DNA from: a virus | Lineage: Duplodnaviria; Caudoviricetes | DNA length: 59,039 bases | Virus record (IMG/VR): IMGVR_UViG_3300036985_002412 | Location: 1 to 59,039 of that record | Direction: 5' to 3' (one strand) | Shown here: piece by piece, positions 1,513 to 49,344 of the stretch | Position numbering within the stretch: the first letter of the stretch is position 1 | How the letters are laid out: each line of letters begins with the position of its first letter | Notes under the pieces: model-generated | The model's database searches: none | What the model saw: only the letters and a program-made list of their open reading frames with translations | What the model was told of the DNA's origin: nothing | Position numbers and translations under genes: made by a program

Positions 1513-1767
1513 ATGACAGAACAGCAAATACAAACTAAAATTAAAAAGAAACTCCAGGAGCGAGGTTGGTTTGTAACCAAACTAATTAAAACCTCCACAA
1601 ATGGCATTCCAGACCTTTTAGCAATCAAATACGGCAAGGCTATGTTTATAGAAGTCAAACGAGAAAACGGCAAACTCGAACCCTTACAACAGACGCGACT
1701 CGAGGAACTAACCCAAGCTGGAGCAATTGTTAAAGTCTGGAGCGATTATGAAGTTGACTTTAAATAA
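1513..1767 (+). CDS. VRR-NUC domain nuclease
   Basis: E..IQ, GIPDLL, FIEVK and Q motifs of the PD-(D/E)xK VRR-NUC family. Confidence 0.85.
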   Translation: MTEQQIQTKIKKKLQERGWFVTKLIKTSTNGIPDLLAIKYGKAMFIEVKRENGKLEPLQQTRLEELTQAGAIVKVWSDYEVDFK

Positions 1768-1892
1768 CGTTTTGCAACTACACGTCTGTTGCGTAAAAAC
1801 ACAAAATTATCTTTCAGTTTAACACGGAATTGAAAGGTACAAAACAAATATTAAATTAATCACAATGTAGCAATAGCGTGTAATTGCTGTTA
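1765..1892. repeat. attC-like hairpin A1
   Basis: TAACgttttGCAACTACACGtCTGTTGC ... GCAATAGCGTGTAATTGCtGTTA. Confidence 0.85.
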
Positions 1893-1907
1893 TAACTCGT
1901 TTTTCTT

Positions 1908-2165
1908 ATGAAAACATTATTAATTACTACAATTTTAATTCATTTATTTTTCACAATAATATCATTTGTGATAAATTACAAAAAAGCAACAGAGCCCTAT
2001 TATGTAAAAGATGCTCTGTATGATTTAGGACTTTGTTTAATTCCAGCTGTAAATATTGCGTATGTGTTTTTAACTTTTTATGAAAGTTATTTAGAAAAGC
2101 ACTTTAATAAAATAACTTTCAATTTTAAAAAATGGTCATCTTTTATGGATAAGCGTTTAAAATGA
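1908..2165 (+). CDS. small membrane protein (cassette cargo)
   Basis: Two hydrophobic segments; segment ends GTTATAACTCGTTTT / AAAATGAGTTATAAC. Confidence 0.7.
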   Translation: MKTLLITTILIHLFFTIISFVINYKKATEPYYVKDALYDLGLCLIPAVNIAYVFLTFYESYLEKHFNKITFNFKKWSSFMDKRLK

Positions 2166-2169
2166 GTTA

Positions 2170-2298
2170 TAACGTTAAACGGCTTTGTGATGTTGCCGAA
2201 AATACACACACTAACTTTAAATTAAAAACTAAACAATGAAAACACAAAATGACAATTCAGTTAAGCCAGAAGTAGGCAATAGCACAAAACCGCTGTTA
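2170..2298. repeat. attC-like hairpin A2
   Basis: TAACgttaaaCGGCTTTGTGATGTTGCC ... GGCAATAGCACAAAACCGctGTTA. Confidence 0.85.
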
Positions 2299-2679
2299 TC
2301 TTCTCGGCTTTTAAAATTCCGAGCTTTTTCAAATGAAACAAAAAAAATGATGGATTGGGACTTTATAAGGTCAGTAAATAATCTAACTAAATTAATATCA
2401 CTAAACCACGTTGATGTTTCTGAATTTATAGGATTGCACGACAAAAATGGTAAAGAAATATACGAAGGAGATATTCTTTGTGATTACAGACTTGATGGTA
2501 CTTATCGGCTGTTTAAAATTTTCAGAGGAAAAGGCGGTTTTGTTTTTAATACCCACCAAGACGATTTTAAAAAACCTATTGAGCAAATTCTATTTACTGA
2601 AAGTTGTTCAGATATGCAAAATGCTGGTTTTTTAGAAACTTGTGAAATAGAAGGTAATATTTGGACGTACGTTTGGTAA
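2236..2679 (+). CDS. YopX family protein (cassette cargo; start inside hairpin loop)
   Basis: KFRAF, GLHDKNGKEIYEGDIL and EIEGNI motifs typical of YopX. Confidence 0.85.
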   Translation: MKTQNDNSVKPEVGNSTKPLLSSRLLKFRAFSNETKKMMDWDFIRSVNNLTKLISLNHVDVSEFIGLHDKNGKEIYEGDILCDYRLDGTYRLFKIFRGKGGFVFNTHQDDFKKPIEQILFTESCSDMQNAGFLETCEIEGNIWTYVW

Positions 2680-2688
2680 GCTGGAAGA

Positions 2689-2815
2689 TAACGTTTCTCG
2701 GCTTTGCTTTGTTGCGGAAAAGTAAGCCAAAATTATCGATTAAAAAACAATATTAACAAACACAAACCGAACATTGAATTATGCCCAAAACCGCAATAGA
2801 GCAAAACCGATGTTA
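2689..2815. repeat. attC-like hairpin A3
   Basis: TAACgtttcTCGGCTTTGCTTTGTTGCGG ... CCGCAATAGAGCAAAACCGAtGTTA. Confidence 0.85.
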
Positions 2816-2830
2816 TAAGTAGCTTTTATT

Positions 2831-3322
2831 ATGGACCAAATTAAACAATTAAAAGATTATTGTGATGAAATTTCACTTGATGATTTACGATTTGTCAAAG
2901 TAAGACAAAAAATAGAAAAAATGCACGAACAAAACAATATAACAATTATTGATTTTATAAAGCAAAAAGAATATGATTTATCTGTTCGTGCAAAAAATGT
3001 ATTAAAATACGCTTCACATTTATATACTTATATGAATGAACTTTCGGTTATTAAATTAGTAAAAATTAGAACTGTTGGTTTAAAAAGCGTAAAAGAAATT
3101 ATACACGTTTACCCTAATTTAGAAAATGAAGTTGGGCATTTAACGAGTATTACAATAAGAGAACATTTAAACAAAGAAGTATTAGCATTTGTTGAATTTG
3201 TATGCTCATCTAAAAATCAAATAGGTTATCACGAAGAAATGAAAAAGTGGTATATTTATGGTAAAGGGTTATGGGTAGATAGTGAACAATTATTTTGGTA
3301 TTTTAACCGCAATGTTGAGTAA
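2831..3322 (+). CDS. protein with RNA polymerase alpha-CTD-like domain (cassette cargo)
   Basis: LSVRAKNVL...LVKIRTVGLKSVKEI resembles the alphaCTD consensus LSVRSxNCL...LLKIxNxGxKSLxEI. Confidence 0.7.
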   Translation: MDQIKQLKDYCDEISLDDLRFVKVRQKIEKMHEQNNITIIDFIKQKEYDLSVRAKNVLKYASHLYTYMNELSVIKLVKIRTVGLKSVKEIIHVYPNLENEVGHLTSITIREHLNKEVLAFVEFVCSSKNQIGYHEEMKKWYIYGKGLWVDSEQLFWYFNRNVE

Positions 3323-3367
3323 AGTTACTTATAACTCCAAAATTCACGCTATAAAAGTATTACAATT

Positions 3368-3550
3368 ATGCAATTATACACTAAAACAAAGGTTATAAGG
3401 ATTTCAGAAACACAATTAAAAACACTTCAAAAAATGAAGTCTTATAATGTTGATGTTGGTAATTTCATTCGTGAAGCAATACAAGAGAAAATTAAACGTG
3501 AGTACAAAGAATTAATATTAAAACATAAAAAATCGGAATGTCCGTTTTAA
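3368..3550 (+). CDS. small ribbon-helix-helix-like DNA-binding protein
   Basis: TKVIRIS beta-strand followed by two helices (FIREAIQEKI). Confidence 0.6.
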   Translation: MQLYTKTKVIRISETQLKTLQKMKSYNVDVGNFIREAIQEKIKREYKELILKHKKSECPF

Positions 3551-3579
3551 TTTTATAACAAATAAAGTATAATTTTGTT

Positions 3580-3608
3580 ACAAAACAACTTTTTTTCGTT
3601 ATATTTGT
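3580..3608 (+). promoter_or_regulatory. ACAAAA-N11-CGTTATA phage promoter overlapping a host-type TATATTTG box
   Basis: Same motif and spacing at 6610, 13771 and 16523. Confidence 0.6.
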
Positions 3609-3614
3609 AACGAT

Positions 3615-3848
3615 ATGATTAAACCGCACACTATATCAACGCAAATGTGGCTCGAAACTGAAGACGATAATCTCGGTTTCAATGGATCATACGTAGAATT
3701 TAGGGTGGTAGTTGATAGCATAAACGGCTTTTGGGTTGAGAATGAAGACGAAATAGTTTTAATTATTAGCGGAACAGCCTATTATATCGAAAGCAACCAG
3801 GATTTATTGAGTTTTTTAAAACAGTATTTTAATCCGTTAACATTATGA
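3615..3848 (+). CDS. hypothetical protein
   Basis: 77-aa ORF overlapping the start of the sigma gene. Confidence 0.7.
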   Translation: MIKPHTISTQMWLETEDDNLGFNGSYVEFRVVVDSINGFWVENEDEIVLIISGTAYYIESNQDLLSFLKQYFNPLTL

Positions 3849-4288
3849 TTTTAGAAGAGTTAGCTAAGAAGGATGCCCAATGGAGAAAAATGGCTTTACA
3901 AATTTGTAAAGACAAGGACTTAGCTGACGAATTAGTACAGGAAATGTACATTAAGGTTTCAAATAAAACAAAACCTTTGTCAGATGGTTATATATTTGTG
4001 ACACTAAGATCCATTTTCTACGACTCTCTTAAATCAAAAGATATTTTAATCGATGACTTCAGAAGTTTTGAAGCTTTAGAGGAGGAAATTATTGATTATA
4101 TAATTGAGGAAATAGATTATAAAGAGCTTTCTAAGGGCTTAACCTGGTACGAACGCACTATGTTTGAACTCTCAACCTTAGTAGGTCAACGGGAACTCTC
4201 AAGACAAACAGGAATACATTTACAAACTATCCATCGAGTTAATAAGATGGTTAAATTAAAACTAAATGGCAAAAAGAAAAATAAATAG
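3845..4288 (+). CDS. ECF-like RNA polymerase sigma factor
   Basis: Region 2 LADELVQEMYIK..YIFVTLRSIFYD; region 4 HTH QRELSRQTGIHLQTI. Confidence 0.75.
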   Translation: MILEELAKKDAQWRKMALQICKDKDLADELVQEMYIKVSNKTKPLSDGYIFVTLRSIFYDSLKSKDILIDDFRSFEALEEEIIDYIIEEIDYKELSKGLTWYERTMFELSTLVGQRELSRQTGIHLQTIHRVNKMVKLKLNGKKKNK

Positions 4289-4406
4289 ATTTAAAATAAT
4301 TACTTTTTGGATAGGTGTAAATATTATAGGTATTCCAAATTTTCATTATCATATTTTTGTAAGAAAACAAAGAACATCATTATCAAGATTTTTTAATTAA
4401 ATAACA

Positions 4407-4784
4407 ATGGCAAAAAGAAAAACTAAAAAGGAAATTCAAGGCTTGGGCGATGTAATTGCAGCTGTAACCTCAGCTGTTGGGATTGAGCCTTGCGATGGTT
4501 GCAAAGACCGACAGTTTACCCTTAATCGTTTATTTAACTTTAAAACGGTTAAAAGCGAAATGACTCAAACCGATAAGGACCATTTTGCTTTATTCTTAGA
4601 CTTAAAAGGTCAAAGAGTAATTGATGGTAAAAGGACGGAGTTAGTTTTCGAGGATATTGATTTTTTAAATAAATTATACCTTTATTACTTTGGATTAGAC
4701 AATTCAAACTGTCCTAACTGTTCAAAAGTTCACGAGCAAGTGATTAAGGATTTATTCAAATTGTACAATTATGGAAATTTATAA
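4407..4784 (+). CDS. conserved phage protein with GLGD and CxxC motifs
   Basis: GLGDVIAAVT..GI..CDGC..R; CPNC. Confidence 0.7.
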   Translation: MAKRKTKKEIQGLGDVIAAVTSAVGIEPCDGCKDRQFTLNRLFNFKTVKSEMTQTDKDHFALFLDLKGQRVIDGKRTELVFEDIDFLNKLYLYYFGLDNSNCPNCSKVHEQVIKDLFKLYNYGNL

Positions 4785-4977
4785 AAGAAAAGCTATTTTT
4801 TCCAATTTAAAAGATTATGATTTTGCATCAAAAGAAAATAGTTATATTGAAATAACAGAATGGAACAACGGAGAAGGAATTGATATAAATGCCAATAATT
4901 ATAGTGATAGAAATATCTCATTATCTTATGCAGAATTTAAATTAATTAAAAAGTTAATTAAAAAATTAGATAAATAA
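4771..4977 (+). CDS. hypothetical protein
   Basis: 68-aa ORF coupled to the upstream gene. Confidence 0.65.
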   Translation: MEIYKRKAIFSNLKDYDFASKENSYIEITEWNNGEGIDINANNYSDRNISLSYAEFKLIKKLIKKLDK

Positions 4978-5034
4978 TGATTGTACCTGAGTTGCTTACC
5001 ATAAGAACAGCTCTCAGGTCTTTTTTAAAAAAAT

Positions 5035-5121
5035 AATCGGTTAATGTAATTGGATATAAATCCAACTTGGGAAACATCCGCTTTTATAGTGGGAATAGAG
5101 GTTCAAATCCTCTACCGATTA
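5035..5121 (+). tRNA. tRNA-like element, atypical or pseudo
   Basis: Acceptor stem AATCGGT/ACCGATT; T-arm AGAGG-TTCAAAT-CCTCT; anticodon-like stem around TTTTATA; D-region enlarged by an extra hairpin. Confidence 0.5.
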
Positions 5122-5158
5122 CAAATTAATAAAATTGAATTTCAAATAATTTTCAATT

Positions 5159-5446
5159 ATGGAGGATAAAAGAAAAAATAACGGAGGAGCGAGAGCAAAC
5201 TCGGGAAGACTTAAAAAGGAAGAGGTATTCTCTTTGATTGAAACACTTGACACAATAGCAATTCCTGAGACAGTTTGGAAAATGCTTTATGCTAAGGTTT
5301 TGGATAGCGATGTAAATGCTATTAAACTTTGGTTAAGTTATCGATATGGAATGCCGAAGCAAGTAATTGATCAAAATATAAATATAGAAAAACCTATTTT
5401 CCAATCAATCAATTTGGATGTTCCAGACTACGACAGCCCAGAGTAA
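5159..5446 (+). CDS. terminase small subunit
   Basis: NGGAR.NSGR N-terminus; overlaps the start of the large terminase gene. Confidence 0.7.
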   Translation: MEDKRKNNGGARANSGRLKKEEVFSLIETLDTIAIPETVWKMLYAKVLDSDVNAIKLWLSYRYGMPKQVIDQNINIEKPIFQSINLDVPDYDSPE

Positions 5447-6581
5447 AATCGCACGATTAAGAAAACGTGTTCGGATTGTGCAGGGTGGAACCTCCAGCTC
5501 GAAAACGTTTTCTATTTTACCTTTATTAATAACTTACGCTATACAAAATCCATTTTCAGAGATTAGTATAGTTAGTGAGAGCATTCCTCATTTAAAAAGG
5601 GGAGCTTTAAAGGATTTTCAAAAGATAATGATATTGACTGACAATTATAAGGATGCTAATTTCAATCGGTCATCGTTAAAATATACGTTTTCAAACAATT
5701 CCTATATTGAATTTTTTAGTGTGGACCAACCGGACAAACTCAGAGGAGCAAGGAGGGATATTCTATTTGTAAACGAGTGCAATAATATCGATTTTGAAAG
5801 CTACCAACAACTCGCAGTGCGTACAAAGAAATTCATTTACTTAGACTACAACCCTACAAATGAGTTTTGGGTACAAACGGAGCTTATAAACGATGCAGAC
5901 TCTGACTTTGTAGTTTTAACTTACAAGGATAACGAGGCACTCGATCCGGCAATCGTTAGAGAGATTGAGAAGGCAAAAGTTAAAGCACTTACATCAACGT
6001 ATTGGGCGAACTGGTGGAACGTTTACGGATTGGGAATGCTTGGCTCACTTGAAGGGGTTATCTTTCAAAATTGGGAGCAAATCGATACCGTACCAGCTGA
6101 AGCAAAATTCTTAGGATGTGGACTCGATTTTGGTTATAGCAATGACCCAACCGCTTTGATTGGAGTGTATGAGTACAATGGTAAGATAATCGCTGACGAA
6201 ATGATATATTCAACCTCACTATTAAACTCCGATATTATTACTTTAATGAAACAAGAGCGAACCCTTCCAATATGGGCGGACTCAGCAGAACCAAAAAGCA
6301 TCGAGGAAATTCGCAGAGCTGGTTACAATATCAAACCAGTTGTTAAGGGTGCAGACTCAATAAATTTCGGTATCTCGGTGCTACAGCAAAAAGAGTTATT
6401 AGTTACAAAATCGAGCACTAATTTAATTAAAGAGTTGAGGCATTACAGTTGGGATGTTGACAAAACAGGCAAAAAGCTAAACAAGCCAATCGACGATTTT
6501 AACCACGGACTCGATGCTTTGCGTTATTTTGCAATGATGCAACTCGCTATAAAACCACATCGTAAGGTGATTATCACGTAA
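5418..6581 (+). CDS. terL: terminase large subunit (PBSX/SPP1-like)
   Basis: QGGTSSSKT Walker A, FVNE Walker B, DYNP, GLDFG, DSAEP and NHGLDALRY nuclease motifs. Confidence 0.95.
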   Translation: MFQTTTAQSKIARLRKRVRIVQGGTSSSKTFSILPLLITYAIQNPFSEISIVSESIPHLKRGALKDFQKIMILTDNYKDANFNRSSLKYTFSNNSYIEFFSVDQPDKLRGARRDILFVNECNNIDFESYQQLAVRTKKFIYLDYNPTNEFWVQTELINDADSDFVVLTYKDNEALDPAIVREIEKAKVKALTSTYWANWWNVYGLGMLGSLEGVIFQNWEQIDTVPAEAKFLGCGLDFGYSNDPTALIGVYEYNGKIIADEMIYSTSLLNSDIITLMKQERTLPIWADSAEPKSIEEIRRAGYNIKPVVKGADSINFGISVLQQKELLVTKSSTNLIKELRHYSWDVDKTGKKLNKPIDDFNHGLDALRYFAMMQLAIKPHRKVIIT

Positions 6582-6609
6582 ATTTAGTGAAAACAACTTA
6601 TTTTTATAA

Positions 6610-6641
6610 ACAAAACCAACTTTTAACGTTATATATATATG
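6610..6641 (+). promoter_or_regulatory. putative late promoter ACAAAA-N11-CGTT-N8-ATG
   Basis: Conserved spacing; precedes the tail operon. Confidence 0.65.
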
Positions 6642-33591: not shown

Positions 33592-33594
33592 GAT

Positions 33595-33889: not shown

Positions 33890-33892
33890 GAT

Positions 33893-37510: not shown

Positions 37511-37511
37511 T

Positions 37512-37844
37512 ATGGCAGAATTAAAAACTTGGAAGATGGATTCTCAAAAAAGAGGAGATACTTTTAATCAGCGAAACATAACATTTCCATTTGATATTAC
37601 GAATTGCGATATAAATATGCAGTTTAGAAAACAAGCAAATGATACAGTAGAATTTGCTTGGAGTACATCGGACGGTACATTTGAAAAAGTAAGTGCTACA
37701 AAGGTTATAATGAAGTCTAAATTGATAAACGCAAATGCAGGTGTTTATCTTTCTGATTTAGAAGTTAGATTTAATGCTACAACTATTTACACATACTGCA
37801 ATGCAACTTTACAGATTTATCAAGACATAACACAAATACCATAA
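37512..37844 (+). CDS. BppU-like adaptor
   Basis: KRGDTF...Y.SDL...DIT, similar to 19147..19470. Confidence 0.55.
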   Translation: MAELKTWKMDSQKRGDTFNQRNITFPFDITNCDINMQFRKQANDTVEFAWSTSDGTFEKVSATKVIMKSKLINANAGVYLSDLEVRFNATTIYTYCNATLQIYQDITQIP

Positions 37845-39466
37845 TGGCAGAAATAATTATAGAAGAAGTAATATTTAATCCCCAAATTAACATTGAGGAA
37901 ACAATTTTAGAAACTTCAATACTTATTGAAGAAATGCAAATGCCTGGTGTTAATGGAAAGACTGCGTATCAGTCTGCATTAGATGGTGGGTTTATAGGTA
38001 CAGAATTAGAGTTTAATTTATTTTTATCTGAAGTTGGAAATAAAGTAGATAAAATTACGGGTAAAGGATTAAGCGCTAACGATTATACAACTACTGAAAA
38101 GAATAAACTTGCAGGAATTGCTGATAACGCTGAAGTTAATGTTAATGCAGATTGGAACGCTACAACTGGCGATGCACAAATTTTAAATAAACCAAGTATT
38201 CCAAATATTGCAGGATTAGCAACAGTTTCTTATGTTGATACTCAAGACGCTTTAAAGGTTGATAAAGTTGCAGGAAAGGGTTTAAGTACAAATGATTATA
38301 CAACTCTAGAACAAACTAAATTAGCAGGAATTGCTGATGGCGCTGAAGTTAATGTTAATGCAGATTGGAACGCTACAACTGGCGATGCACAAATTTTAAA
38401 TAAACCAAGTATTCCAAATATTGCAGGATTAGCAACAGTTTCTTACGTTGATACTCAAGACGCTTTAAAGGTTGATAAAGTTGCAGGAAAGGGTTTAAGT
38501 ACAAATGATTATACAACTCTAGAACAAACTAAATTAGCAGGAATTGCTGATAACGCTGAAGTTAATGTTAATGCAGATTGGAACGCTACAACTGGTGATG
38601 CACAAATTTTAAACAAACCTACAATAGCAACACAAACAAGTCAACTAACTAATAATGGTGCTGATGGTACAAATCCATTTATAACTGCTTTAGATATACC
38701 TACAAGCGGACAAGCAGGTTCGTTAGTTCGTGAGGTTAAAAATATGACTGGAGCAACTTTAACAAAAGGTACTGTCGTTTATATTAGTGGTGCAAATGGA
38801 AACAAAGCATTAGTTTCAAAAGCACTTGCTATTAATGATGAATTAAGTTCAAGAACGTTTGGACTATTACAATCTAACATTTTAAATAATGAGTTAGGAA
38901 ATTGTGTTATAATTGGTGATTTAAGTGGGTTAAATACTTCTTCTTTTGCAGAAGGAGTACAATTATATTTAAGTGGAGTAACTGCTGGAACATATACATC
39001 AACAAAACCATCAGCACCAATACATTTAGTATATATAGGTAAAGTAACACGTTCACATCCAACATTAGGACAAATTGAAGTAGGCATTCAAAATGGTTAT
39101 GAATTATCAGAAATTCACGATGTAGCTATTAATGGTGTTTCTAATAATGAATTGTTACTTTACGAAAGTTCAACTTCTCTTTGGAAAAATAAAAGAGTTA
39201 CGACTTTTGTAAACGGGCAAAGTGGCACAGTAAATGCAACAAACACGTTTGGAATAATTGTGTATGAATTTACAGGAGCAGGAAATTTAATACTGCCAAC
39301 AGCTATTGGAAACAATGCATTATTTAAAGTTAAAAATAGACACACAGAAAACATAACAGTTACTTTTACAGCGGGTCAAAATGCTGATGGTACAACAACA
39401 ATTATTCTAACACCATTTCAAGCGTTAGAATTTATTTCAAATAATATAAATTTTAATATTTTTTAA
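37844..39466 (+). CDS. tail fibre protein with 71-aa tandem repeats
   Basis: KVDK..GKGLS.NDYT...KLAGIA..AEVNVNADWN...ILNKP three times. Confidence 0.8.
   Translation: MAEIIIEEVIFNPQINIEETILETSILIEEMQMPGVNGKTAYQSALDGGFIGTELEFNLFLSEVGNKVDKITGKGLSANDYTTTEKNKLAGIADNAEVNVNADWNATTGDAQILNKPSIPNIAGLATVSYVDTQDALKVDKVAGKGLSTNDYTTLEQTKLAGIADGAEVNVNADWNATTGDAQILNKPSIPNIAGLATVSYVDTQDALKVDKVAGKGLSTNDYTTLEQTKLAGIADNAEVNVNADWNATTGDAQILNKPTIATQTSQLTNNGADGTNPFITALDIPTSGQAGSLVREVKNMTGATLTKGTVVYISGANGNKALVSKALAINDELSSRTFGLLQSNILNNELGNCVIIGDLSGLNTSSFAEGVQLYLSGVTAGTYTSTKPSAPIHLVYIGKVTRSHPTLGQIEVGIQNGYELSEIHDVAINGVSNNELLLYESSTSLWKNKRVTTFVNGQSGTVNATNTFGIIVYEFTGAGNLILPTAIGNNALFKVKNRHTENITVTFTAGQNADGTTTIILTPFQALEFISNNINFNIF
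38041..38620 (+). repeat. 213-bp tandem repeat, ~2.7 copies
   Basis: GCAGATTGGAAC occurs at 38147, 38360 and 38573. Confidence 0.9.
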
Positions 39467-42879: not shown

Positions 42880-42882
42880 GTT

Positions 42883-43446
42883 ATGGTAAATTATATTCAA
42901 ACAATAAGAAACCTTGCAATAGTTATATTAATCGGAATAGGTATTTGGTTTTACAAAGATTGGCAATTTCAAAAGTCAGAAAATATTCGCCAGACTGAAA
43001 ATATGCGACAAGTTAGAATAGCTGATAGTTTACGATTTTCAAGTCAAATAGTCAATTCTAACGAACTAAAAGATTATTTGCAATATCAGAACTCGGATTT
43101 ACTTAATAATCTCTCAAAAGAGGGTATAAAAACAAATAGGGTAAAAGAAATTGTAAGCACTAATTATGTATATCGAGATACTACTTATACAGAACACAAA
43201 GAAAAAAAATTTACTGATAGCACTAAATGTTTAACAATAAAAGGAACTATAAATCCCAATGGAACTGTTTCAATTACTGATAGAAAATTTACTAATAAAA
43301 CAGATGCTGTTGCTTTCTGGGAAAGAAAACAATGGAGTTTTTTAGGAATTAAATCAAGGTTTTTAGGCAAAAAACAAATGAGTGCAAAAGTGTATAATGA
43401 ATGTGGTGAAAGTCAAATAATTAAGATAGAAAAAAAAGAAAATTAA
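42883..43446 (+). CDS. putative spanin (Rz-like)
   Basis: N-terminal TM anchor directly after the endolysin. Confidence 0.5.
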   Translation: MVNYIQTIRNLAIVILIGIGIWFYKDWQFQKSENIRQTENMRQVRIADSLRFSSQIVNSNELKDYLQYQNSDLLNNLSKEGIKTNRVKEIVSTNYVYRDTTYTEHKEKKFTDSTKCLTIKGTINPNGTVSITDRKFTNKTDAVAFWERKQWSFLGIKSRFLGKKQMSAKVYNECGESQIIKIEKKEN

Positions 43447-43463
43447 AAATATTTTAAAAAAAA

Positions 43464-43570
43464 TTTGCATTATATAAAAAAAGTTTTGTAAGTTTGTACC
43501 CAGCAAGTAGGACAGCTATAAGAAATCAATTTATCCAATCGTTTGAGAAGTCCTACTCTCTTTCGGTTGG
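43464..43570 (+). promoter_or_regulatory. TTTG / TAAGTTTG promoter with pseudoknot-like leader, upstream of cassette array 2
   Basis: -33 TTTG at 43464, -7 box at 43489; AGTAGGAC is complementary to GTCCTACT in the loop of the CCAATCG/CGGTTGG hairpin. Confidence 0.65.
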
Positions 43571-43604
43571 TTTTTTATTTAAAATTAAAATTACAAATGT
43601 ACAC

Positions 43605-43731
43605 TAACGTTTTGCAGCTAATCGACAGGTTGGGATTAAATAGTACAAACTTTAAATAACAGATAAAATGAGTAAAGAAAACGAAAACTTAAATGAAACA
43701 GAAAACTCGGCATTGAATATAGGTGCTGTTA
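43605..43731. repeat. attC-like hairpin B1 (degenerate)
   Basis: TAACgttttGCAGCTA ... TAGGTGCtGTTA; upper stem pairs poorly. Confidence 0.65.
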
Positions 43732-43955
43732 GCGGTTCGTTGCTTTCATTCGAGGAAATTATGAATGAGGCAAAAAGAGTAAAGGAAAATGTCAAAGCAT
43801 TCCCATTTCACGATGTATCATTTCAGTATGGTGCAGAATGGTCAAGAGATATTTTGATTGAAGAAATTAAACGTAGGCAAGAATTGATAATTTCAGAACC
43901 TGATGGAATTGTTCGAGAAACGATGATTGCTAATTTGTTGGTTGGTCTGCAATGA
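43668..43955 (+). CDS. hypothetical cassette protein
   Basis: Starts in the hairpin loop; segment ends GTTAGCGGTTCGTTGC / GCAATGACCGCTAAC. Confidence 0.7.
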   Translation: MSKENENLNETENSALNIGAVSGSLLSFEEIMNEAKRVKENVKAFPFHDVSFQYGAEWSRDILIEEIKRRQELIISEPDGIVRETMIANLLVGLQ

Positions 43956-43959
43956 CCGC

Positions 43960-44083
43960 TAACGTTTCGCGGCTTTGTGCAGGCGGGAAAATAAAACCTA
44001 ATAATTGAATTAAACACTAATAATAAAAATATACCAAATGACTGAATTAAAGACTAATGCCCGCTTGCTCAAAACCGCTGTTA
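43960..44083. repeat. attC-like hairpin B2
   Basis: TAACgtttcGCGGCTTTGTGCAGGCGGG ... CCCGCTTGCTCAAAACCGCtGTTA. Confidence 0.9.
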
Positions 44084-44841
44084 TGTGTAGGGCGGTTGAT
44101 AATTTAGAGTTGCTTAAAACGCAAGCTGATGAAAGTGTTGATTTAATTTACTGCGACATTCTTTATGGAACAGGTAGAAATTTCGGTGATTACCAAGATT
44201 TAAAACCGAATAGAAGCGAAATAGAAGCACATTATGAACCACGATTAAGAGAAATGCACCGAGTATTAAAAAGCACAGGGAGTATTTATTTACAAATGGA
44301 TTATAGAATAGTGCATTGGATTAGAATTTTGATGGATGATATATTTAATTATAAAAATTACATTCAATCTATTTATTGGAAATATAATGCAGGAGGGAAA
44401 CATAAAGATAAATTTAAAACTGTTACTGATGAAATTTTATTTTATTCAAAAACAGAAAACAAGTGTTTTTATCCTGAAAGGGTTATGATACCTCATCATC
44501 CTGATACATATAGACGAATAAAAGGATATGCGAATGCTGGAATAACCATAAATATAAATGGAAAACAGCGTGAAAATTTATGGGATTTTAATGCTGTAAA
44601 AAAAGGCAATTATACTAAAATCAATGCCGAATATGTTGATTATTCAACTCAAAAGCCAAAAGCATTGATTGAAACAATAATTAAGGCAAGTTCAAACGAA
44701 GGAGATACCGTTGCCGATTATTATTTAGGTTCAGGAACAACCGCAGTAGTATGTAAAGAATTGAACCGAAATTTTATTGGTTGCGACATTAATCCAAAGG
44801 CTATTGAAATTACAAATGCTCGTTTAGATGCAGTTTCGTAG
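44038..44841 (+). CDS. N6/N4 DNA methyltransferase (cassette cargo)
   Basis: VDLIYCDILY (variant DPPY), YSTQKP and DYYLGSGTT motifs. Confidence 0.85.
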   Translation: MTELKTNARLLKTAVMCRAVDNLELLKTQADESVDLIYCDILYGTGRNFGDYQDLKPNRSEIEAHYEPRLREMHRVLKSTGSIYLQMDYRIVHWIRILMDDIFNYKNYIQSIYWKYNAGGKHKDKFKTVTDEILFYSKTENKCFYPERVMIPHHPDTYRRIKGYANAGITININGKQRENLWDFNAVKKGNYTKINAEYVDYSTQKPKALIETIIKASSNEGDTVADYYLGSGTTAVVCKELNRNFIGCDINPKAIEITNARLDAVS

Positions 44842-44850
44842 CCTTGCACA

Positions 44851-44977
44851 TAACGGTTGCGGCTTGTATCGTCGTTGCGGACTTCGTAACTACAAAATTT
44901 CATCTTAAAAATAAATATAATGCGAAACGAAAATATGATTGAACCACAAAATCCGCAATGCGTACAAGCCGTTGTTA
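44851..44977. repeat. attC-like hairpin B3
   Basis: TAACggttgCGGCTTGTAtCGtCGTTGCGGA ... TCCGCAATGCGTACAAGCCGttGTTA, with two extrahelical T. Confidence 0.9.
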
Positions 44978-46371
44978 CTGGCTGTTTCTCTCGTGTAGTA
45001 GATACTGGTTCAGATTTTAGCGGAGTTGGGGCATTTGATCAGGCACTTGAAAGATTAGGAATTAAACAAAATAAAAAGTTTGCTTGTGATATGGATAAAT
45101 ATGCAAGACAGACTTATATCTACAATTTTGGAGAACCTGATTATTATCCTGAAAATGTTTATGATCGTAAAATACCAAAAGAAAGTTTAGATATTTATAT
45201 GACTTCGCCTCCTTGCCAAAGTTTCTCACTTGCTGGAAAACGCAAAGGCGAAGATTCTAAAAATGGAGTTTTGTTTTATAATTCACACGAATTTATTGTA
45301 AAAAACAATCCTCGTTATTTCATTTTTGAAAATGTAAAAGGATTACTTTCTGATGATAACGGAAAAACGTTTCAAAGATGGATTGATTATTTAGGAGGTA
45401 AATCAGTAAATGGAAATCCTGTAATATTCCCTCACGAAAACGCAACACCGTATCACGTTTATTATCAGGTTATGAATGCTAAACATTACGGAGTTCCTCA
45501 AAACCGTGAAAGGATTTTCATTATAGGGATTCGTGATGATGTAGATAATACTTTTACTTTTCCAAAACCATTTCATTTAATTAAAAGATTGAAAGATGTT
45601 TTAGAAAGTGAAGTTGATGAAAAATATTTTTTGAGCGATACAATGCTTACTTGGATTGATAAACATAGAGAAAAAAGAAGTAGTTCAGGAAAATATCCAT
45701 TTACAGAAGAAGATGAGTATAGCGGTTGCATTACAGCACGATATAATAAAATGGGTGCAGAAGATATATTTATTGGAGCAATACGAGGTCGAAATCCACA
45801 AAATCCATTAAGTAGAGTTTCAGGATTGCCAACTGAACAAATGCTTGAGATAAACGAAAACGGAACTTCAAACGCATTAACAACGGTTCAAAAAGATAAT
45901 GTGGTTATAATTCCTGCTAATAACTCAAAAGGCTATGATATTGCAGAAGAAGAAGAAGATTCTATAAATTTTTCAAATCCAAATTCAGAAACTAGACGTG
46001 GTAGAGTTGGCAAAGGAGTAGCACAAACATTAGATACGAGTTGTAATCAGGGAGTTTTAGTAAAAAATGACGCTTATATTTTAGGATATACAAGGGATAA
46101 AAAAGGAAAAGTTACAAAAAGAAATCCTTTAAATCATTCAAATACAATTCATACTTCAACTGGAAGCGGAGGAAATACAGACCAATTCGCTATTTGTAAC
46201 CAAAGAATCCGTCGATTAACCCCAAAAGAATGCTTTGCTTTAATGGACTTCAACGAAGATTTCAAATGGGATGTTTCCGACAGTCAAGCCTATAAACAAG
46301 CAGGAAATAGTATTGTTGTAGCTTGTTTAGTTGAGATTATAAAACGTCTTGATTTACGTAAACCGAAATAG
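44920..46371 (+). CDS. C5 cytosine DNA methyltransferase (cassette cargo)
   Basis: FSGVG, SPPCQSFS, FENVKG, QNRER, RRLTP and QAGNS motifs. Confidence 0.95.
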   Translation: MRNENMIEPQNPQCVQAVVTGCFSRVVDTGSDFSGVGAFDQALERLGIKQNKKFACDMDKYARQTYIYNFGEPDYYPENVYDRKIPKESLDIYMTSPPCQSFSLAGKRKGEDSKNGVLFYNSHEFIVKNNPRYFIFENVKGLLSDDNGKTFQRWIDYLGGKSVNGNPVIFPHENATPYHVYYQVMNAKHYGVPQNRERIFIIGIRDDVDNTFTFPKPFHLIKRLKDVLESEVDEKYFLSDTMLTWIDKHREKRSSSGKYPFTEEDEYSGCITARYNKMGAEDIFIGAIRGRNPQNPLSRVSGLPTEQMLEINENGTSNALTTVQKDNVVIIPANNSKGYDIAEEEEDSINFSNPNSETRRGRVGKGVAQTLDTSCNQGVLVKNDAYILGYTRDKKGKVTKRNPLNHSNTIHTSTGSGGNTDQFAICNQRIRRLTPKECFALMDFNEDFKWDVSDSQAYKQAGNSIVVACLVEIIKRLDLRKPK

Positions 46372-46375
46372 CCAG

Positions 46376-46500
46376 TAACGTTCCCTCGCTTTGTGATGTT
46401 GCAAAGTTCGGAACTGCATATTTTCCGCTACAAATAAACGTGATGCGAACCGTAAACGTCAATTTACTACATAATTTGCAATAGCACAAAACGAGTGTTG
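46376..46500. repeat. attC-like hairpin B4
   Basis: TAACgttccCTCGCTTTGTGATGTTGCAAA ... TTTGCAATAGCACAAAACGAGtGTTG. Confidence 0.9.
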
Positions 46501-46599
46501 GCAGTAGTTTTTTTGATGTTAGGAAAATTTTACTAACTATTTAATGTCTAAAGGTGTCGAATTCGACAAGTTTAGGAAAACTTTACTAAAAATAATATT

Positions 46600-46878
46600 A
46601 TGGCTAAAAATTGGACAACCGAAGAAGAAGAAATTATTAAACAAGAGGTTTTAAAAAACCCTAATAATTTAAGAGAAGCATTTTTTATTGCTTCATTGAA
46701 AACTGGAAGAACTGCTACATCTGTTTGCACCCGATATTACGGAGCGATGAATGAAGAAAAAGAAACCAAAGACGAGCAAATAAAGAAATTATCAATAGAA
46801 ATTATAAAACTTTATGACTTGAATTTAGAGCTAAAACAACAACTTGAAGATGCAACAAAAGCTAAATTTATTAATTGA
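46600..46878 (+). CDS. Myb/SANT-like DNA-binding protein (cassette cargo)
   Basis: WTTEEEEII...GRT..SV..RY. Confidence 0.6.
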   Translation: MAKNWTTEEEEIIKQEVLKNPNNLREAFFIASLKTGRTATSVCTRYYGAMNEEKETKDEQIKKLSIEIIKLYDLNLELKQQLEDATKAKFIN

Positions 46879-47308
46879 TAAGAAATTTAATTATAAGGAT
46901 AAGATTATCAGTATAACTAAATGGAAAAAAGTAGGAGTTACTTATGTTGTTTTTACAGATAGGCAAACTTATAATTTCTTTGAAAATGAAATAGATTTAT
47001 TTATTGAGGAACTTCTTCCGGTAAGAGTAAAACTAAAAGAAGGGGTTTTAGAAAAAAGACAATTAGAGTTAAAAAATGTATCAATACAAGTAAAAAAAGA
47101 CGAACTCAACACTAATAAAATGGAAGAAAACGAAAAAAATATTGTACCAATACAAGAAAATGATTTGAGTGTAATTCTTTTAGATACTATTCAAAAAGTG
47201 CAAAAAGACAAAACTTACATTAATCAAGCCAATGCAATTTGCAATGTAGTTTCTCAAATGATTAACATAAAAAAACTCGAATTACAATTGGCACGCAATG
47301 TTCGGTAA
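46844..47308 (+). CDS. hypothetical protein (second gene of cassette B4)
   Basis: 154-aa ORF ending just inside the cassette end. Confidence 0.7.
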   Translation: MKMQQKLNLLIDKKFNYKDKIISITKWKKVGVTYVVFTDRQTYNFFENEIDLFIEELLPVRVKLKEGVLEKRQLELKNVSIQVKKDELNTNKMEENEKNIVPIQENDLSVILLDTIQKVQKDKTYINQANAICNVVSQMINIKKLELQLARNVR

Positions 47309-47317
47309 AATTACTGC

Positions 47318-47442
47318 CAACGGTTCTCGGCTTTGCGATGGTGGGGTTTCAAGGCACAAATGTTCAACCCACAACTAATGTTTAATAGAATTACAAATGA
47401 TGAATTTACAACTTCCTCCCCACTATTGCAAAACCGATGTTA
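47318..47442. repeat. attC-like hairpin B5
   Basis: CAACggttcTCGGCTTTGCGATGGTGGGG ... CCCCACTATTGCAAAACCGAtGTTA. Confidence 0.9.
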
Positions 47443-48179
47443 TGCGTAGTGTTTTAGTCCACGCTGATTGCTTTGATGTGTTTCCATACATTGCTGATAA
47501 AAGCGTAAATCTTATTTTATGCGATTTGCCTTATGGTACTACCGCTTGTAAATGGGATAGTATTTTGCCTTTTGAAAAACTTTGGAATGAATACGAAAGA
47601 ATAATAACCGATAATGGTGCAATAGTGCTAACGGCATCACAACCATTTACGAGTGCTTTGGTAATGAGTAATCCAAAAATGTTTAAACACGAATGGATTT
47701 GGGAAAAACAAAAGGCAGCAAATTTTATGAATATGAAAACTGCTCCTGCAAAATACCACGAAAACATATTGGTATTTGCAAAAAACACTCCAACTTATAA
47801 TCCTATAATGTGGCAAATAGAAGAAAGCAAACGAGATAAAAGAAAAACTGTAAATAACCCAATTACTAATAAAGATTGTCATTTAGGGGAAATTGTAAGA
47901 ACAAGAAAAGAAGATGATGGAAGTAGATACCCAAAAAGTATTTTAAAAATTGACAAAAGCATAAATAAAAATTTGCACCCAACAGCAAAACCTTTGGAAC
48001 TTATGCAATACTTAATCAAAACATATTCAAATGAAGATGATGTAGTAATGGATAATTGTATGGGTAGCAACACAACAGGTTTAGCTTGTAAAGAGTTAAA
48101 TCGTCAATACATAGGAATTGAAAAAGAAAAAGCGTATTATGATATTTCAGTCAAACGAGTTACGGAGTGTCTGTTCTAA
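47397..48179 (+). CDS. N6/N4 DNA methyltransferase (cassette cargo)
   Basis: ILCDLPYG, HPTAKP and DNCMGSNTTG motifs. Confidence 0.9.
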   Translation: MMNLQLPPHYCKTDVMRSVLVHADCFDVFPYIADKSVNLILCDLPYGTTACKWDSILPFEKLWNEYERIITDNGAIVLTASQPFTSALVMSNPKMFKHEWIWEKQKAANFMNMKTAPAKYHENILVFAKNTPTYNPIMWQIEESKRDKRKTVNNPITNKDCHLGEIVRTRKEDDGSRYPKSILKIDKSINKNLHPTAKPLELMQYLIKTYSNEDDVVMDNCMGSNTTGLACKELNRQYIGIEKEKAYYDISVKRVTECLF

Positions 48180-48188
48180 CATTACGCA

Positions 48189-48314
48189 TAACGTTATCTC
48201 GCTTGGCGAGGTTGGGAAAAATAAGCCCAAATCATCTTATTTAAAAACTATAAAACCAAGTACAAAATGAACAATAAATTAAGCCAAATACCCAATCTTG
48301 CCAAACGAGTGTTA
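48189..48314. repeat. attC-like hairpin B6
   Basis: TAACgttatCTCGCTTGGCGAGGTTGGG ... CCCAATCTTGCCAAACGAGtGTTA. Confidence 0.9.
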
Positions 48315-49268
48315 GTGGCTGATGTGGGATTGAAAGAAAGATGTCTTATTTCATTCTCTGGTGGCGAAACTTCCGCTTATATGTTATGGTGGTTATTAAC
48401 TCATAAATCTGATGTTTATGATTTTGTAATAATATTTGCTAATACTGGGCAAGAAAATGAGCAAACTTTAGAATTTGTTAGAAATTGTGAAACTCATTTT
48501 GGTTGTAAAATTGTATGGGTTGAAGCTGTGCCAAGAATGTTTTTTCAAGGCAAAGTAAATAAAGTAGAAGATTGGTTAAACAATATCCAAATTATAAAAT
48601 GGATTGGAAAAAAACTTGGGACAAAACACAGAGTTGTAAATTTTGAAACAGCTAATCGTGATGGAAAAGTTTACGAGACTGTAATTGCGAGATACGGAAT
48701 ACCAAATGCGGCTGGAATATTTTGCACAAGAGAATTGAAATTAAGACCTATAACTTCATATTTGAGAAGTATCGGATGGAAAAAAGGAACGTACCAATCA
48801 GCAATAGGAATTAGAGCTGATGAATTTGACAGAATGAATAAAGATAGAGTTAAAGAAAAACTTTATTATCCTTTGATAAAAGACCAACCAATGACAAAAC
48901 CTAAAATTAATTTTTGGTGGAAATTACAGCCTTTTAGATTAGAATTGAAAGGTTATCAAGGAAATTGTAAATGGTGCTTTAAAAAATCAGATAATAAACT
49001 TTATCAATTAGCACAAGAAACGCCTGAAATATTTGAATTTCCTGACAGAATGGAACAGATTTATGGAAATTGGATTCCACCCGATAGATTAGCTGAATTG
49101 ATTGAAAAAGGAAAAGAAATACCAACAAATATTAAGTTTTTTAGAAACCATAAATCAGCAAAAGATATTTTAGAAAACTCAAAAACATTTGATAAAAACG
49201 TGAAAGATGATAGTGATGTTTATGATGATACAGAGAGTTGCGATATATACGCAGAATGTGGTTCTTAA
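48267..49268 (+). CDS. PAPS reductase-like / adenine nucleotide alpha-hydrolase protein (cassette cargo)
   Basis: SFSGGETS PP-loop, FANTGQE, CTRELK, GIRADE and GNCKWCFKK motifs. Confidence 0.8.
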   Translation: MNNKLSQIPNLAKRVLVADVGLKERCLISFSGGETSAYMLWWLLTHKSDVYDFVIIFANTGQENEQTLEFVRNCETHFGCKIVWVEAVPRMFFQGKVNKVEDWLNNIQIIKWIGKKLGTKHRVVNFETANRDGKVYETVIARYGIPNAAGIFCTRELKLRPITSYLRSIGWKKGTYQSAIGIRADEFDRMNKDRVKEKLYYPLIKDQPMTKPKINFWWKLQPFRLELKGYQGNCKWCFKKSDNKLYQLAQETPEIFEFPDRMEQIYGNWIPPDRLAELIEKGKEIPTNIKFFRNHKSAKDILENSKTFDKNVKDDSDVYDDTESCDIYAECGS

Positions 49269-49278
49269 ACGTAAACGA

Positions 49279-49344
49279 ACATTTGCCACTAACTACTATA
49301 TGTAAAAAAAATGTGCGAACACTAATAAACTTAATGCCTAACAA
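49279..49344. other. candidate attI-like primary recombination site
   Basis: Last cassette end ACATTTGCCACTAAC is not followed by a hairpin; TAAC ends 51 bp before the integrase ATG. Confidence 0.55.

Follow-up and report, generated by a model that had tools for sequence, protein, structure and literature searches.

Which feature of the DNA marks the borders of the gene cassettes in a flavobacterial phage, and is it read as a sequence or as a fold? The window analyzed here (the whole stretch of 59,039 nucleotides; IMG/VR record IMGVR_UViG_3300036985_002412, positions 1 to 59,039) belongs to the Caudoviricetes; all of its genes lie on the + strand, which is G-rich throughout (GC skew +0.04 to +0.23). 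It holds nine cassettes in two arrays, A and B, and we consider it quite probable that their nine sites serve for recombination in an integron-like system of gene cassettes used by Flavobacteriia phages. Judged from sequence, they are best described as predicted attC-like, structure-read sites of an integron-like system of a non-IntI type.

Sequences and Site Detection

The window was compared with 80 related viral loci, and the position-11 count covered 191 unique cassettes. The site finder requires AACG, GTT and an inner duplex that is stable, and it favors well-paired sites; because of these criteria positions 1-3 pair by construction, and weak sites, namely that of cassette B1 and one site of the mumin phages, were missed. 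There were 238 consecutive pairs, of which 33 fell below the 7-of-8 filter and were dropped ahead of the position counts. Cassette counts refer to unique sequences from loci of common ancestry and, since related loci share ancestry, do not equal numbers of independent events.

Organization of the Cassettes

Each cassette extends from the G after one ...TAAC up to the next ...TAAC and presents, in order, a 4-5-nt bulge, a 19-bp inner stem with its loop, an unpaired T, a 15-nt outer arm (GTTA...), the gene, and a complementary 15-nt arm ending in TAAC. The loop of the inner stem measures 20-190 nt and often holds the start codon, and site length ranges from ∼40 to ∼220 nt with a mode of 110-120 in the related loci.

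Array A lies on the + strand. Cassette A1 (1769..2173) begins with a site (1769-1888) made up of the G, a 4-nt bulge, the inner stem, the loop and the T; its arms are outer-R (1889-1903) and outer-L (2159-2173, ending in TAAC), its ORF (1908-2165) has no assigned function, the T eleven bases from the arm end (T11, at 2163) stands opposite the G at 1899, and the T of the inner wobble is at 1874. In A2 (2174..2692; site 2174-2294) outer-R (2295-2310) has one base bulged, outer-L occupies 2678-2692, and a YopX-like ORF (2236-2679) starts within the loop; T11 at 2682 is opposite G12 at 2306, with the inner T at 2280. A3 (2693..3335; site 2693-2811, outer-R 2812-2826, outer-L 3321-3335) carries an ORF (2831-3322) with a weak RNAP alpha-CTD-like match, and its T11 at 3325 faces the G at 2822.

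Array B is likewise on the + strand. B1 (43609..43963) has a weak site (43609-43727), an outer-R with one bulged base (43728-43743), outer-L at 43949-43963, an ORF at 43668-43955, and T11 at 43953 opposite G12 at 43739. Two cassettes encode N6/N4 DNA methyltransferases: B2 (43964..44854; site 43964-44079, outer-R 44080-44094, outer-L 44840-44854, ORF 44038-44841), with T11 at 44844 opposite the G at 44090, and B5 (47322..48192; site 47322-47438, outer-R 47439-47453, outer-L 48178-48192, ORF 47397-48179), with T11 at 48182 opposite the G at 47449. B3 (44855..46379; site 44855-44973, outer-R 44974-44988, outer-L 46365-46379) encodes a C5 DNA methyltransferase (44920-46371) and pairs T11 at 46369 with the G at 44984; its site is free of the C:A mismatch described below. 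B4 (46380..47321; site 46380-46496, outer-R 46497-46511, outer-L 47307-47321) holds two small ORFs (46600-46878 and 46844-47308), T11 at 47311 being opposite the G at 46507. Finally, B6 (48193..49293; site 48193-48310, outer-R 48311-48325, outer-L 49279-49293) contains a PAPS-reductase/PP-loop-like ORF (48267-49268), and its T11 at 49283 is opposite the G at 48321.

Outer Stem and the Position-11 Wobble

A preliminary description of the window had reported a T:G wobble at a constant place in every cassette. We found the T at the eleventh base from the ...YAAC end, with a G opposite, in all nine, at R11 in seven and at R12, where one base is bulged, in two (A2 and B1). The same wobble was kept in the related loci, the larger alignment by which its conservation was to be judged: T occupied L11 in 190 of the 191 unique cassettes, and a G stood opposite in 183 (147 at R11 and 36 at R12).

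Pairing of the outer arms exceeds chance. At the variable positions 5-9, cognate arms were complementary at a mean of 4.28/5, whereas shuffled partners reached 1.66 and the arm merely adjoining the site in the array 1.63; complementarity was full in 164/224 unique cassettes of the related loci, and 100 distinct pentamers were seen. Watson-Crick pairing was 64-81% at positions 12-15 and 25% at position 16, and the drop sets the outer stem at 15 bp, as had been estimated. When arms were found by complementarity alone, 195/211 ended in AAC and in 156 a G came next. The outer box, xxMTAAC/GTTAK, sits inside a 15-bp stem whose two arms, one at each end of the gene, come together only once the cassette is an excised circle.

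Inner Stem, Half-Sites and Strand Asymmetry

Beside the AAC/GTT core the asymmetric loop noted earlier was present, with the G and 4-5 unpaired bases facing a single T (R-1, 9/9 sites). The inner arms covary: RNAalifold gave 16 pairs for the nine inner hairpins, 14 of them with compensatory changes, and Watson-Crick pairing reached 83-99% at most positions from R-3 to R-21. A second fixed wobble, absent from the preliminary description, was identified at R-15, where T faces G in 274/317 sites with 0% gaps, and in 8/9 sites of the window (RNAalifold). In the minimum-energy fold the unpaired T bases that had been pointed out, one in A1 and two in B3, lie on the 5' arm. The reported C:A mismatch occurs in seven of the nine inner stems (A1, A2, A3, B2, B4, B5 and B6), always at R-6 and always on the central base of the inner AAC-equivalent, but it is not general, being found in 76/317 sites (24%) of the larger set; although it can be written as G:T on the other strand, it is a genuine mismatch on the strand that folds.

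Each arm contains a conserved half-site, M-T-T-N5-T-A-A-C (profile M-T-T-N5-T-A-A/N-C). The outer-L and inner-R profiles matched at one offset only (r = 0.79, other offsets ≤ 0.24), and in these profiles the R-15 wobble is the dyad image of the outer position-11 wobble. The inverted half-sites, on the outer-stem 5' arm and the inner-stem 3' arm, are separated by ∼6 nt on the 3' arm, and this 11-6-11 geometry appears only in the folded hairpin of the + strand. The suggestion that structure, not sequence, is recognized thus holds in part: the arms covary cassette by cassette, but each keeps a conserved half-site, so recognition would not be purely structural.

Folding of both strands of the reconstituted sites showed the + strand to be more stable in 9/9 window sites and in 184/185 related sites (mean -24.1 vs. 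-19.5 kcal/mol), a gap that is not independent evidence because it follows directly from the same wobbles. Transition mismatches in the inner stem are strand-biased, with 610 G:T/T:G vs. 165 C:A/A:C; mutation bias on the G-rich + strand could account for part of this general excess, a reading that the position-specific wobbles alone resist. Strand selection by wobbles, as had been proposed, agrees with the favored + fold and with the excess of G:T/T:G; yet the two dyad-related T.G wobbles (outer 11 and inner R-15) suggest a mark read per recombinase half-site and not only strand choice. Their likening to attC extrahelical bases did not stand, since each wobble base has a partner and the recombinase is without the IntI domain by which extrahelical bases are bound.

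The Adjacent Recombinase and the attI-Like Region

A tyrosine recombinase of the XerA-like 'simple' type (49345..50151, + strand, 268 aa) follows array B and consists of a SAM-like N-domain and a catalytic domain (Pfam Phage_int_SAM_4 and Phage_integrase), with no arm-binding domain. Its best solved relatives are XerA (4a8e, 5hxy), and its best model is XerA at 180.8 vs. a cut-off of 220. Unlike IntI, it scores under the integron-integrase cut-off (curated NCBIfam TIGR02249, 146 bits vs. 265) and lacks the IntI-specific insertion: against IntI4 (2a3v), query residues 173-211 cover chain residues 175-260, so that ∼47 residues are missing.

Between the last AAC and the recombinase start codon lies a predicted attI-like docking region (49294..49344, + strand, 51 nt), which opens with TAYTATATRTA, a motif conserved across related loci. 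A T/A-rich motif of the TAYTATAT type follows the last AAC, 42-103 nt before the recombinase start, in ∼50 of the 58 listed loci, while in 6 of the 58 a further site follows instead; at many loci, down to ∼47% protein identity, the last AAC lies a constant 51-52 nt before the recombinase start and is directly followed by the motif. The arrays sit immediately 5' of the recombinase gene and are co-directional with it: + strand sites number 301 upstream and 6 downstream (0.71 vs. 0.011 per kb, 65-fold), and of the 57 loci whose upstream DNA exceeds 2 kb, 56 carry a site in the 2 kb before the gene. The end of array A (3335) lacks the attI-like motif. No recombinase was found near array A or near the arrays of the mumin phages and of phage P12002L, and the whole genomes of the latter two encode no tyrosine recombinase or integrase; in these cases the enzyme would act in trans or the arrays would be relics. 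The adjacent recombinase could be primarily a lysogeny integrase.

Tyrosine recombinases mostly act on duplex sites, and no hairpin was seen in the attI-like partner. The enzyme might accordingly bind duplex DNA at the array junctions, with left ends marked by a fixed T (ATT), right ends by a G (AGT), and the 'wobble' an artefact of how the arms are written, no strand folding at all; the conserved profile of each arm, which goes beyond structure, also fits this idea. We regard it as unlikely. A duplex reader needs no complementarity at five hypervariable bases, yet all five pair in most cassettes across 100 pentamers; the inner arms covary too, the pairing outer arms meet only in a circle, and the transition mismatches are strand-biased. 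Reading of a folded strand is the interpretation we prefer.

Crossover and Cassette Mobility

Two Muminvirus strains, mumin6-1 and mumin6-3, differ by a 506-bp indel that is exactly one cassette, bounded by a shared TAACGTT (7-bp identity) with otherwise identical flanks. This comparison places the predicted crossover within TAAC|GTT. In addition, contigs from other metagenomes lose their likeness to the window at 44854, 44855 and 47322, the match of one contig ends at 49293, and one contig joins 44855 to 47328 with 5 letters between, a junction indicating that the end of B2 adjoins a B5-like site. The sites appear to be foldable DNA swap sites at which predicted anti-restriction methylases and other genes are moved as cassettes.

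Could such exchanges arise through no dedicated enzyme, by homologous or microhomology recombination between intergenic repeats during co-infection, the neighboring gene being a prophage integrase and the array a tolerant 'moron' spot? Phage mosaicism through short homologies is well known, the indel ends share 7 bp, and virulent array-bearing phages encode no tyrosine recombinase. Nevertheless, microhomology selects neither cassette-specific complementary arms nor fixed non-Watson-Crick pairs, and it leaves aside the conserved motif that directly follows the last AAC, the constant spacing to the recombinase start and the 65-fold upstream enrichment of sites; we therefore hold this account to be highly improbable.

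It is only slightly less improbable that the hairpins act in RNA, as processing, stability or translation-control elements around start codons, with cassette mobility as a side effect of the repeats. G.U pairs typify RNA helices under selection, the strand that shows the wobble bias is the sense strand, the + strand carries all genes and has the polarity of the mRNA, and at least 80/191 cassettes have their first in-frame ATG in the loop or in the 5' arm. Against this, Rfam, a collection that does not include the attC covariance model of IntegronFinder/HattCI, gave no match to the sites, the outer stem would need to bridge 0.2-4 kb of RNA, and the half-site spacing is that of recombinase arms; the DNA indel with TAAC|GTT ends, the invariant AAC arm ends and the fixed linkage to recombinase and docking motif would also go unexplained.

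Comparison With Known Systems

As set out in passages of Nivina et al. (2016; PMC5027507), attC is an imperfect palindrome with R and L boxes, a central spacer that is unpaired and a terminal loop that varies, conserved in structure and little in sequence, with conserved AAC/GTT, crossover at the AAC of the folding strand and a preference for one strand. Within that account, our sites share the imperfect palindrome with two boxes on the folded strand (paired outer and inner stems, half-site inverted repeat r = 0.79), the conserved AAC/GTT with crossover at the AAC region (the exact bond being placed within the TAACGTT window only), the unpaired central spacer and variable terminal structure, low sequence and high structure conservation, and the preferred strand; like integrons, they form cassette arrays adjoining a tyrosine recombinase with a docking site. 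Differences from the same descriptions are as follows. First, the outer stem is 15 bp vs. the 7-bp R box, and RYYYAAC (/GTTRRRY) occurs in only 13/191. Second, attC has partnerless extrahelical bases on the arm opposite AAC, whereas fixed T.G wobbles occur here in both half-sites and the occasional unpaired T (A1, B3) sits on the AAC arm. Third, the spacer bulges on one side only, by 4-5 nt that face a single T. Fourth, attC is 3' of a promoterless ORF encoded on the non-folding top strand, whereas our sites are 5' of the ORF, on the coding strand, often with the start codon in the loop. Fifth, unlike in integrons as described, the array is upstream of the recombinase gene and co-directional.

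Partial precedents exist. In a screen of 10,705 phage genomes, Qi et al. (2023; PMC9892861) reported a phage CALIN in P12002L, with two predicted attC sites read as ordinary integron attC of divergent direction, one of which was recombined as a single strand by IntI1; the excerpted text contains no mention of Flavobacterium phages, and gives no cassette-wide outer stems, wobble code or own recombinase. In our analysis, this virulent Polaribacter phage carries orphan methyltransferase genes separated by AAC...GTT palindromes with outer arms that pair across the gene, the same kind of locus as the window. Ross et al. (2019; bioRxiv 10.1101/471110) described rAID-1 of gut Bacteroidales, an XerD-family recombinase beside long co-directional arrays of small low-GC genes with repetitive intergenic sequences "reminiscent of integrons". 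By that description it resembles our loci in phylum, in the recombinase beside a gene array and in the repetitive intergenic sequences. The recombinase is however at the array 3' end here (56/57 loci) and at the 5' end in rAID-1, the cargo is methyltransferases here and immunity genes there, and the rAID-1 passages describe no site structure.

The sites also resemble Xer/dif in their simple Xer-type recombinase and two inverted 11-nt arms ∼6 nt apart. In the CTX phage the single strand folds into a hairpin imitating a Xer/dif site, and Val and co-workers in 2005 and Das and co-workers in 2013 are said to have described the Xer-dependent integration of its folded single-stranded genome. Unlike Xer/dif, the arms are hypervariable and covarying, many sites per genome bound mobile gene cassettes, and the phage itself encodes a single enzyme, no XerC/XerD pair having been seen.

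Proposed Mechanism and Implications

In the mechanism we propose, the excised circle would bring the outer arms together, and the + (coding) strand would fold into one long imperfect hairpin, on which two monomers of the adjacent XerA-like recombinase would bind the inverted half-sites. The + strand may then be cleaved in the outer half-site, at TAA|C or within TAAC|GTT, and the cleaved strand exchanged; with another cassette site the outcome would be excision, and with the attI-like site immediately before the recombinase gene it would be insertion. The central T of M-T-T faces a G in each half-site. On the other strand these two fixed T.G wobbles, and likewise G(+1).T(-1) next to the core, turn into A.C mismatches, so that folding of the + strand would be favored, and the wobbles probably also offer the protein a deformable landmark whose distance to the cleavage point is constant. 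Where present, the C:A breaks the middle of the inner AAC/GTT look-alike and in this way probably keeps cleavage to the outer box.

More tentatively, the sites and the XerA-like enzyme may represent a separate, perhaps older, form of single-strand, structure-read recombination, in which a plain Xer-type enzyme reads a dif-like 11-6-11 site on a folded strand and paired G.T wobbles replace the extrahelical bases and the IntI-specific domain. If true, this system would either bridge Xer/dif and IntI/attC as their missing link or have arisen independently, and a large cassette pool of Bacteroidota and their phages would be invisible to present integron finders.

Results

Pfam annotation of the complete viral record (59,039 bp; G+C 27–38%), in which every sizeable gene lies on the + (coding) strand, revealed phage packaging, lysis and replication genes, together with a tyrosine recombinase at 49345–50151. 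The cargo of array A (1769–3335; cassettes A1–A3) and array B (43609–49293; cassettes B1–B6) comprised small accessory genes: three N6/N4 or C5 DNA methyltransferases, PAPS-reductase-like and YopX-like genes, and unknowns. Outside the arrays, the stretches 26110–26946, 52916–53344 and 57499–57873 hold further orphan methyltransferase genes, one of just 142 aa, along with a NUMOD4/HNH homing-endonuclease gene. The record contains two phage-like halves, the first with TerL at 5418, the second with a lambda-type portal at 34637. They share near-identical pairs (1–148 and 33447–33594, 99%; 1031–1165 and 33757–33891, 95%), the outcome either of chimeric assembly or of a genuine duplication of an early-gene module. 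A 32-nt leader motif is repeated before small genes at 126, 832, 927, 33344 and 33659. A tRNA-like element at 5035–5121 scored 32 bits against the Rfam tRNA model (cut-off 29, E 0.008), and ARAGORN found no tRNA there. In addition, the ORF at 37844–39466 contains three tandem 213-nt repeats (38042–38680; 89% and 74% alike) and that at 36249–37214 contains six ~60-nt repeats (36725–37082) with a weak CBM_5_12 match; both probably encode repeat-built tail fibre or receptor-binding proteins.

Inspection of 1400–5500 and 43400–49500 revealed one construction ahead of each gene of both arrays: the TAAC of the preceding gene's end, a G followed by four to five unpaired bases, a 19-nt arm, a loop of ~70 nt, the complementary arm, a single T and then GTTA. 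The 15 bases from GTTA showed no complementarity to the adjoining TAAC arm and were complementary to the TAAC arm at the distal end of the next gene. We refer to the 15 nt at either end of one cassette's gene as outer arms, counting the left arm back from its terminal TAAC (L1, L11) and the right arm forward from GTTA (R1, R11); R-n is base n before the GTT of the right arm, on the 3′ side of the inner stem, and +1 is the base after TAAC. A site is reconstituted when both outer arms of one cassette are joined, as in the excised circle.

In a scripted table of the nine arm pairs, L11 was T in all nine, opposite G at R11 in seven and opposite G at R12, with one bulged base, in two (A2 and B1), and outer-arm pairing did not extend beyond position 15. 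Also invariant (9/9) were G at +1, T at R-1, A at R-7 and T at R-15; R-6 was A, opposite C, in seven. Minimum-energy folding of the circle junctions with DNA parameters gave the expected hairpin (-12.5 to -32.7 kcal/mol), which in 9/9 sites was more stable than its complement and than the in-array junction, and left unpaired T on the 5′ arm in A1 (one) and B3 (two). RNAalifold on the nine inner hairpins returned 16 pairs, 14 with compensatory changes and one that was G:U in 8/9. Judged by this table, the folds and RNAalifold, the preliminary description was accurate: a T 11 nt from the terminal AAC facing G in all nine cassettes, a C:A mismatch in seven inner stems, extrahelical T in A1 and B3 and a covarying primary sequence were all recovered. 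A generic inverted-repeat scan did not place the sites among its 25 longest pairs; the imperfect arms are separated by as much as 4 kb. When one mismatch was allowed, the word GTTATAAC showed no enrichment, with 54 occurrences where 43.6 were expected (5 of 100 shuffles reached 54).

Related sites were collected from 80 viral loci (45–95% identity) retrieved with the recombinase protein, using a finder on both strands that required AACG, a downstream GTT at 40–230 nt and an inner duplex at least as stable as -12 kcal/mol; the sample is biased toward well-formed sites and relatives of one recombinase clade. The 242 consecutive site pairs (238 unique) yielded 205 with at least 7/8 Watson-Crick pairs at positions 1–8, 33 being dropped. 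Positions 1–3 pair by construction of the finder; beyond them, the Watson-Crick share was 91–100% at positions 4–9, 71% at position 10 and 64–81% at positions 12–15, falling to 23–35% from position 16 onward. At position 11, only four of the 205 pairs were Watson-Crick, 158 were G (right arm):T (left arm), and 42 had T on the left opposite C or T. Loss of the wobble in a larger alignment had been named beforehand as evidence against it; across 191 cassettes, obtained with slightly different de-duplication, T was kept at L11 in 190, and the base facing it was G at position 11 in 147 cassettes and G at position 12 in 36. Only 13 of these 191 fitted the canonical RYYYAAC box. An origin of T11 in the stop codon was ruled out, since the T fell within TGA/TAG in some cassettes only and was present regardless of stop position; counts of start-codon placement were noisy, with no ATG in the chosen frame in 46/191.

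The variable positions 5–9 were fully complementary (5/5) in 164/224 cassettes, with a mean of 4.28 against 1.66 for shuffled partners and 1.63 for the adjoining arm, and comprised 100 distinct pentamers. Arms located purely by complementarity at positions 4–15 ended in AAC in 195/211, and the next base was G in 156, T in 40 and A in 14, T or A marking mostly array ends.

Among 317 unique inner stems, R-1 was T in 96% and mostly unpaired, R-3 to R-21 were paired, and R-7 was A in 94% and Watson-Crick in 99%. R-15 was T in 93% and lay opposite G in 274/317; this second fixed wobble is absent from the preliminary description, whose position-11 wobble stands. A C (5′ arm):A (3′ arm) mismatch occurred at R-6 alone (76/317). 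Under a stricter check with exact flanks, A at R-6 was opposite C in 64 sites and opposite T in none, and these 64 came from 34 sequence contexts and 24 loci, which indicates more than one site lineage. From R-2 to R-24, we counted 610 G:T or T:G against 165 C:A or A:C, a general wobble excess that could be due in part to the G-rich composition of the + strand. The + strand fold was the more stable in 184/185 reconstituted sites, and this energy gap is due to the same wobbles.

Position profiles of the left outer arm, over L14 to L1, and of the 3′ inner arm, over R-18 to R-5, correlated at r=0.79, and no other offset tested exceeded 0.24. Both arms read M-T-T-N5-T-A-(A)-(C), the wobble T being the central T of M-T-T in each, and the two half-site copies sit on opposite arms, facing each other, ~6 nt apart on the 3′ arm. 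By its sequence, this is the layout of two putative recombinase half-sites flanking a central region, equivalent to the attC boxes R and L. It resembles Xer/dif and the folded CTX phage attachment site. In the inner copy, the C:A mismatch coincides with the counterpart of the central A of AAC, a position which suggests that it may disable a second crossover point.

On covariation alone, a cassette could be bounded either after TAAC or before GTTA. Relatives of the methyltransferases were found in Flavobacterium, Polaribacter and Cellulophaga phages by distant blastn against phage records. Flavobacterium phage mumin6-1 contains at least 11 sites of the window's kind, and one of its genes is absent from strains mumin6-3 and 6-4; pairwise alignment showed a single 506-bp gap with TAACGTT at both borders, the sequences being otherwise identical across the 900 nt compared. 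The mobile unit is therefore hairpin, gene and TAAC arm, with crossover within TAAC|GTT. A crossover between inner stem and GTTA, the top-strand reading, was ruled out by this indel ending in TAACGTT, and a transposon, in which the gene would carry terminal inverted repeats, was ruled out since the indel takes in one whole inner hairpin. In mumin6-1, an identical 14 nt ending TTATAAC occurs both ahead of the first site and at the last cassette's end.

Words of 43500–49400 were also present, at 13–23%, in 23 other public runs, and four of these metagenomes, from four studies, were compared with the stretch by contig at 90% likeness, stretches without contig cover being uninformative. Likeness was lost at 44854, 44855 and 47322, among 24 loose ends listed with 377 further; a 1034-nt contig matched 48301–49293 and its match ended there, and one contig connected 44855 to 47328 through five other letters, so that the end of B2 adjoins a B5-like site. 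These breaks support, and do not prove, crossover at the cassette borders.

Sites on the + strand were concentrated upstream of the recombinase gene (301, or 0.71 per kb) relative to downstream (6, or 0.011 per kb), and 56 of 57 loci with >2 kb of upstream DNA had a site within 2 kb, 50 having two or more. The last cassette's far arm was locatable in 58 loci: in most the next element was TAYTATATRTA, a conserved T/A-rich motif, in many the recombinase start lay at a fixed 51–52 nt, down to ~47% protein identity, and in six a further compact site replaced the motif. We read TAYTATATRTA as a candidate attI-like docking site. Array A ends at 3335 without this motif, and the small ORF that follows, within 3336–3551, resembles gp003, the small gene after the mumin6-1 array. 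Compact sites of ~40–60 nt with a common loop motif (TCGTTTTAATG) were seen at L047 ~6411, L079 ~7119, the array ends of L051, L055 and L063, and L002 6010–6075 (L-numbers denote related loci); they look like a minimal site version with a conserved loop.

Homologues in bacterial genomes at 54–73% identity (Flavobacterium, Bacteroidales MAGs) had the same upstream arrays, and those at 40–45% were mostly without one. Two distant homologues (41–45%), from a MAG labelled Akkermansia (L099, 8410–12313) and Croceivirga radicis (L111, 8874–12527), had arrays of finder hits downstream on the opposite strand, a different platform layout. Hits in GC-rich acidobacterial loci, scattered over both strands, were taken as noise and left out.

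The 268-aa recombinase matched best, among NCBIfam models, the archaeal-type XerA (180.8 bits, cut-off 220), and it scored 146 against a cut-off of 265, in two stretches, with the integron-integrase model. Its best solved relatives were XerA (4a8e, 5hxy). Alignment to IntI4 (2a3v) broke between query 173 and 211 versus chain 175 and 260, ~47 residues being absent at the integron-specific domain. No PF00589 protein at all was found in mumin6-1 or Polaribacter phage P12002L.

Discussion

Our analyses give good support to the view that the nine sites belong to a non-IntI integron-like system and are cassette recombination sites, recognised on the + strand mainly through their structure, with crossover in TAAC|GTT. 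For the fixed wobbles, position-specific conservation and symmetry lead us to infer a role in choosing the strand, in protein recognition, or in both.

A 'CALIN' with two methyltransferase genes has been described in P12002L, where one of two predicted attC sites was recombined by IntI1 when delivered as bottom strand (Qi et al., 2023, PMC9892861); the available text of that article does not mention Flavobacterium phages. The arm logic of this locus is the same as in the window, and the recombined site probably belongs to the compact set. The rAID-1 arrays adjoin a XerD-like recombinase, and their intergenic repeats are called 'reminiscent of integrons' in the portion of the preprint consulted (Ross et al., 2019, bioRxiv 10.1101/471110). 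The attC defining features used for comparison come from Nivina et al. (2016, PMC5027507), in the available text of which the word 'wobble' is absent. Presence or absence of methyltransferases in Muminvirus was linked to plating efficiency (Nilsson et al., 2020, PMC7077304), in an article whose accessible sections mention neither cassettes nor inverted repeats. Our literature search found no published description of this site code or of an attC wobble rule.

The site code is now stated explicitly enough to be tested. Its elements are an outer stem of 15 bp, a dyad-related pair of T.G wobbles, a bulge on one side only and an inner AAC look-alike mismatch. The code offers direct mutational targets for studying how a folded strand is chosen by a tyrosine recombinase that lacks the IntI domain, and a search model for cassettes apparently missed by attC-based tools. 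Furthermore, the five freely variable, self-matching outer-stem bases could give addressable, structure-specific recombination sites for engineering. For the flavobacterial phages themselves, it accounts for the reshuffling of their orphan methyltransferases.
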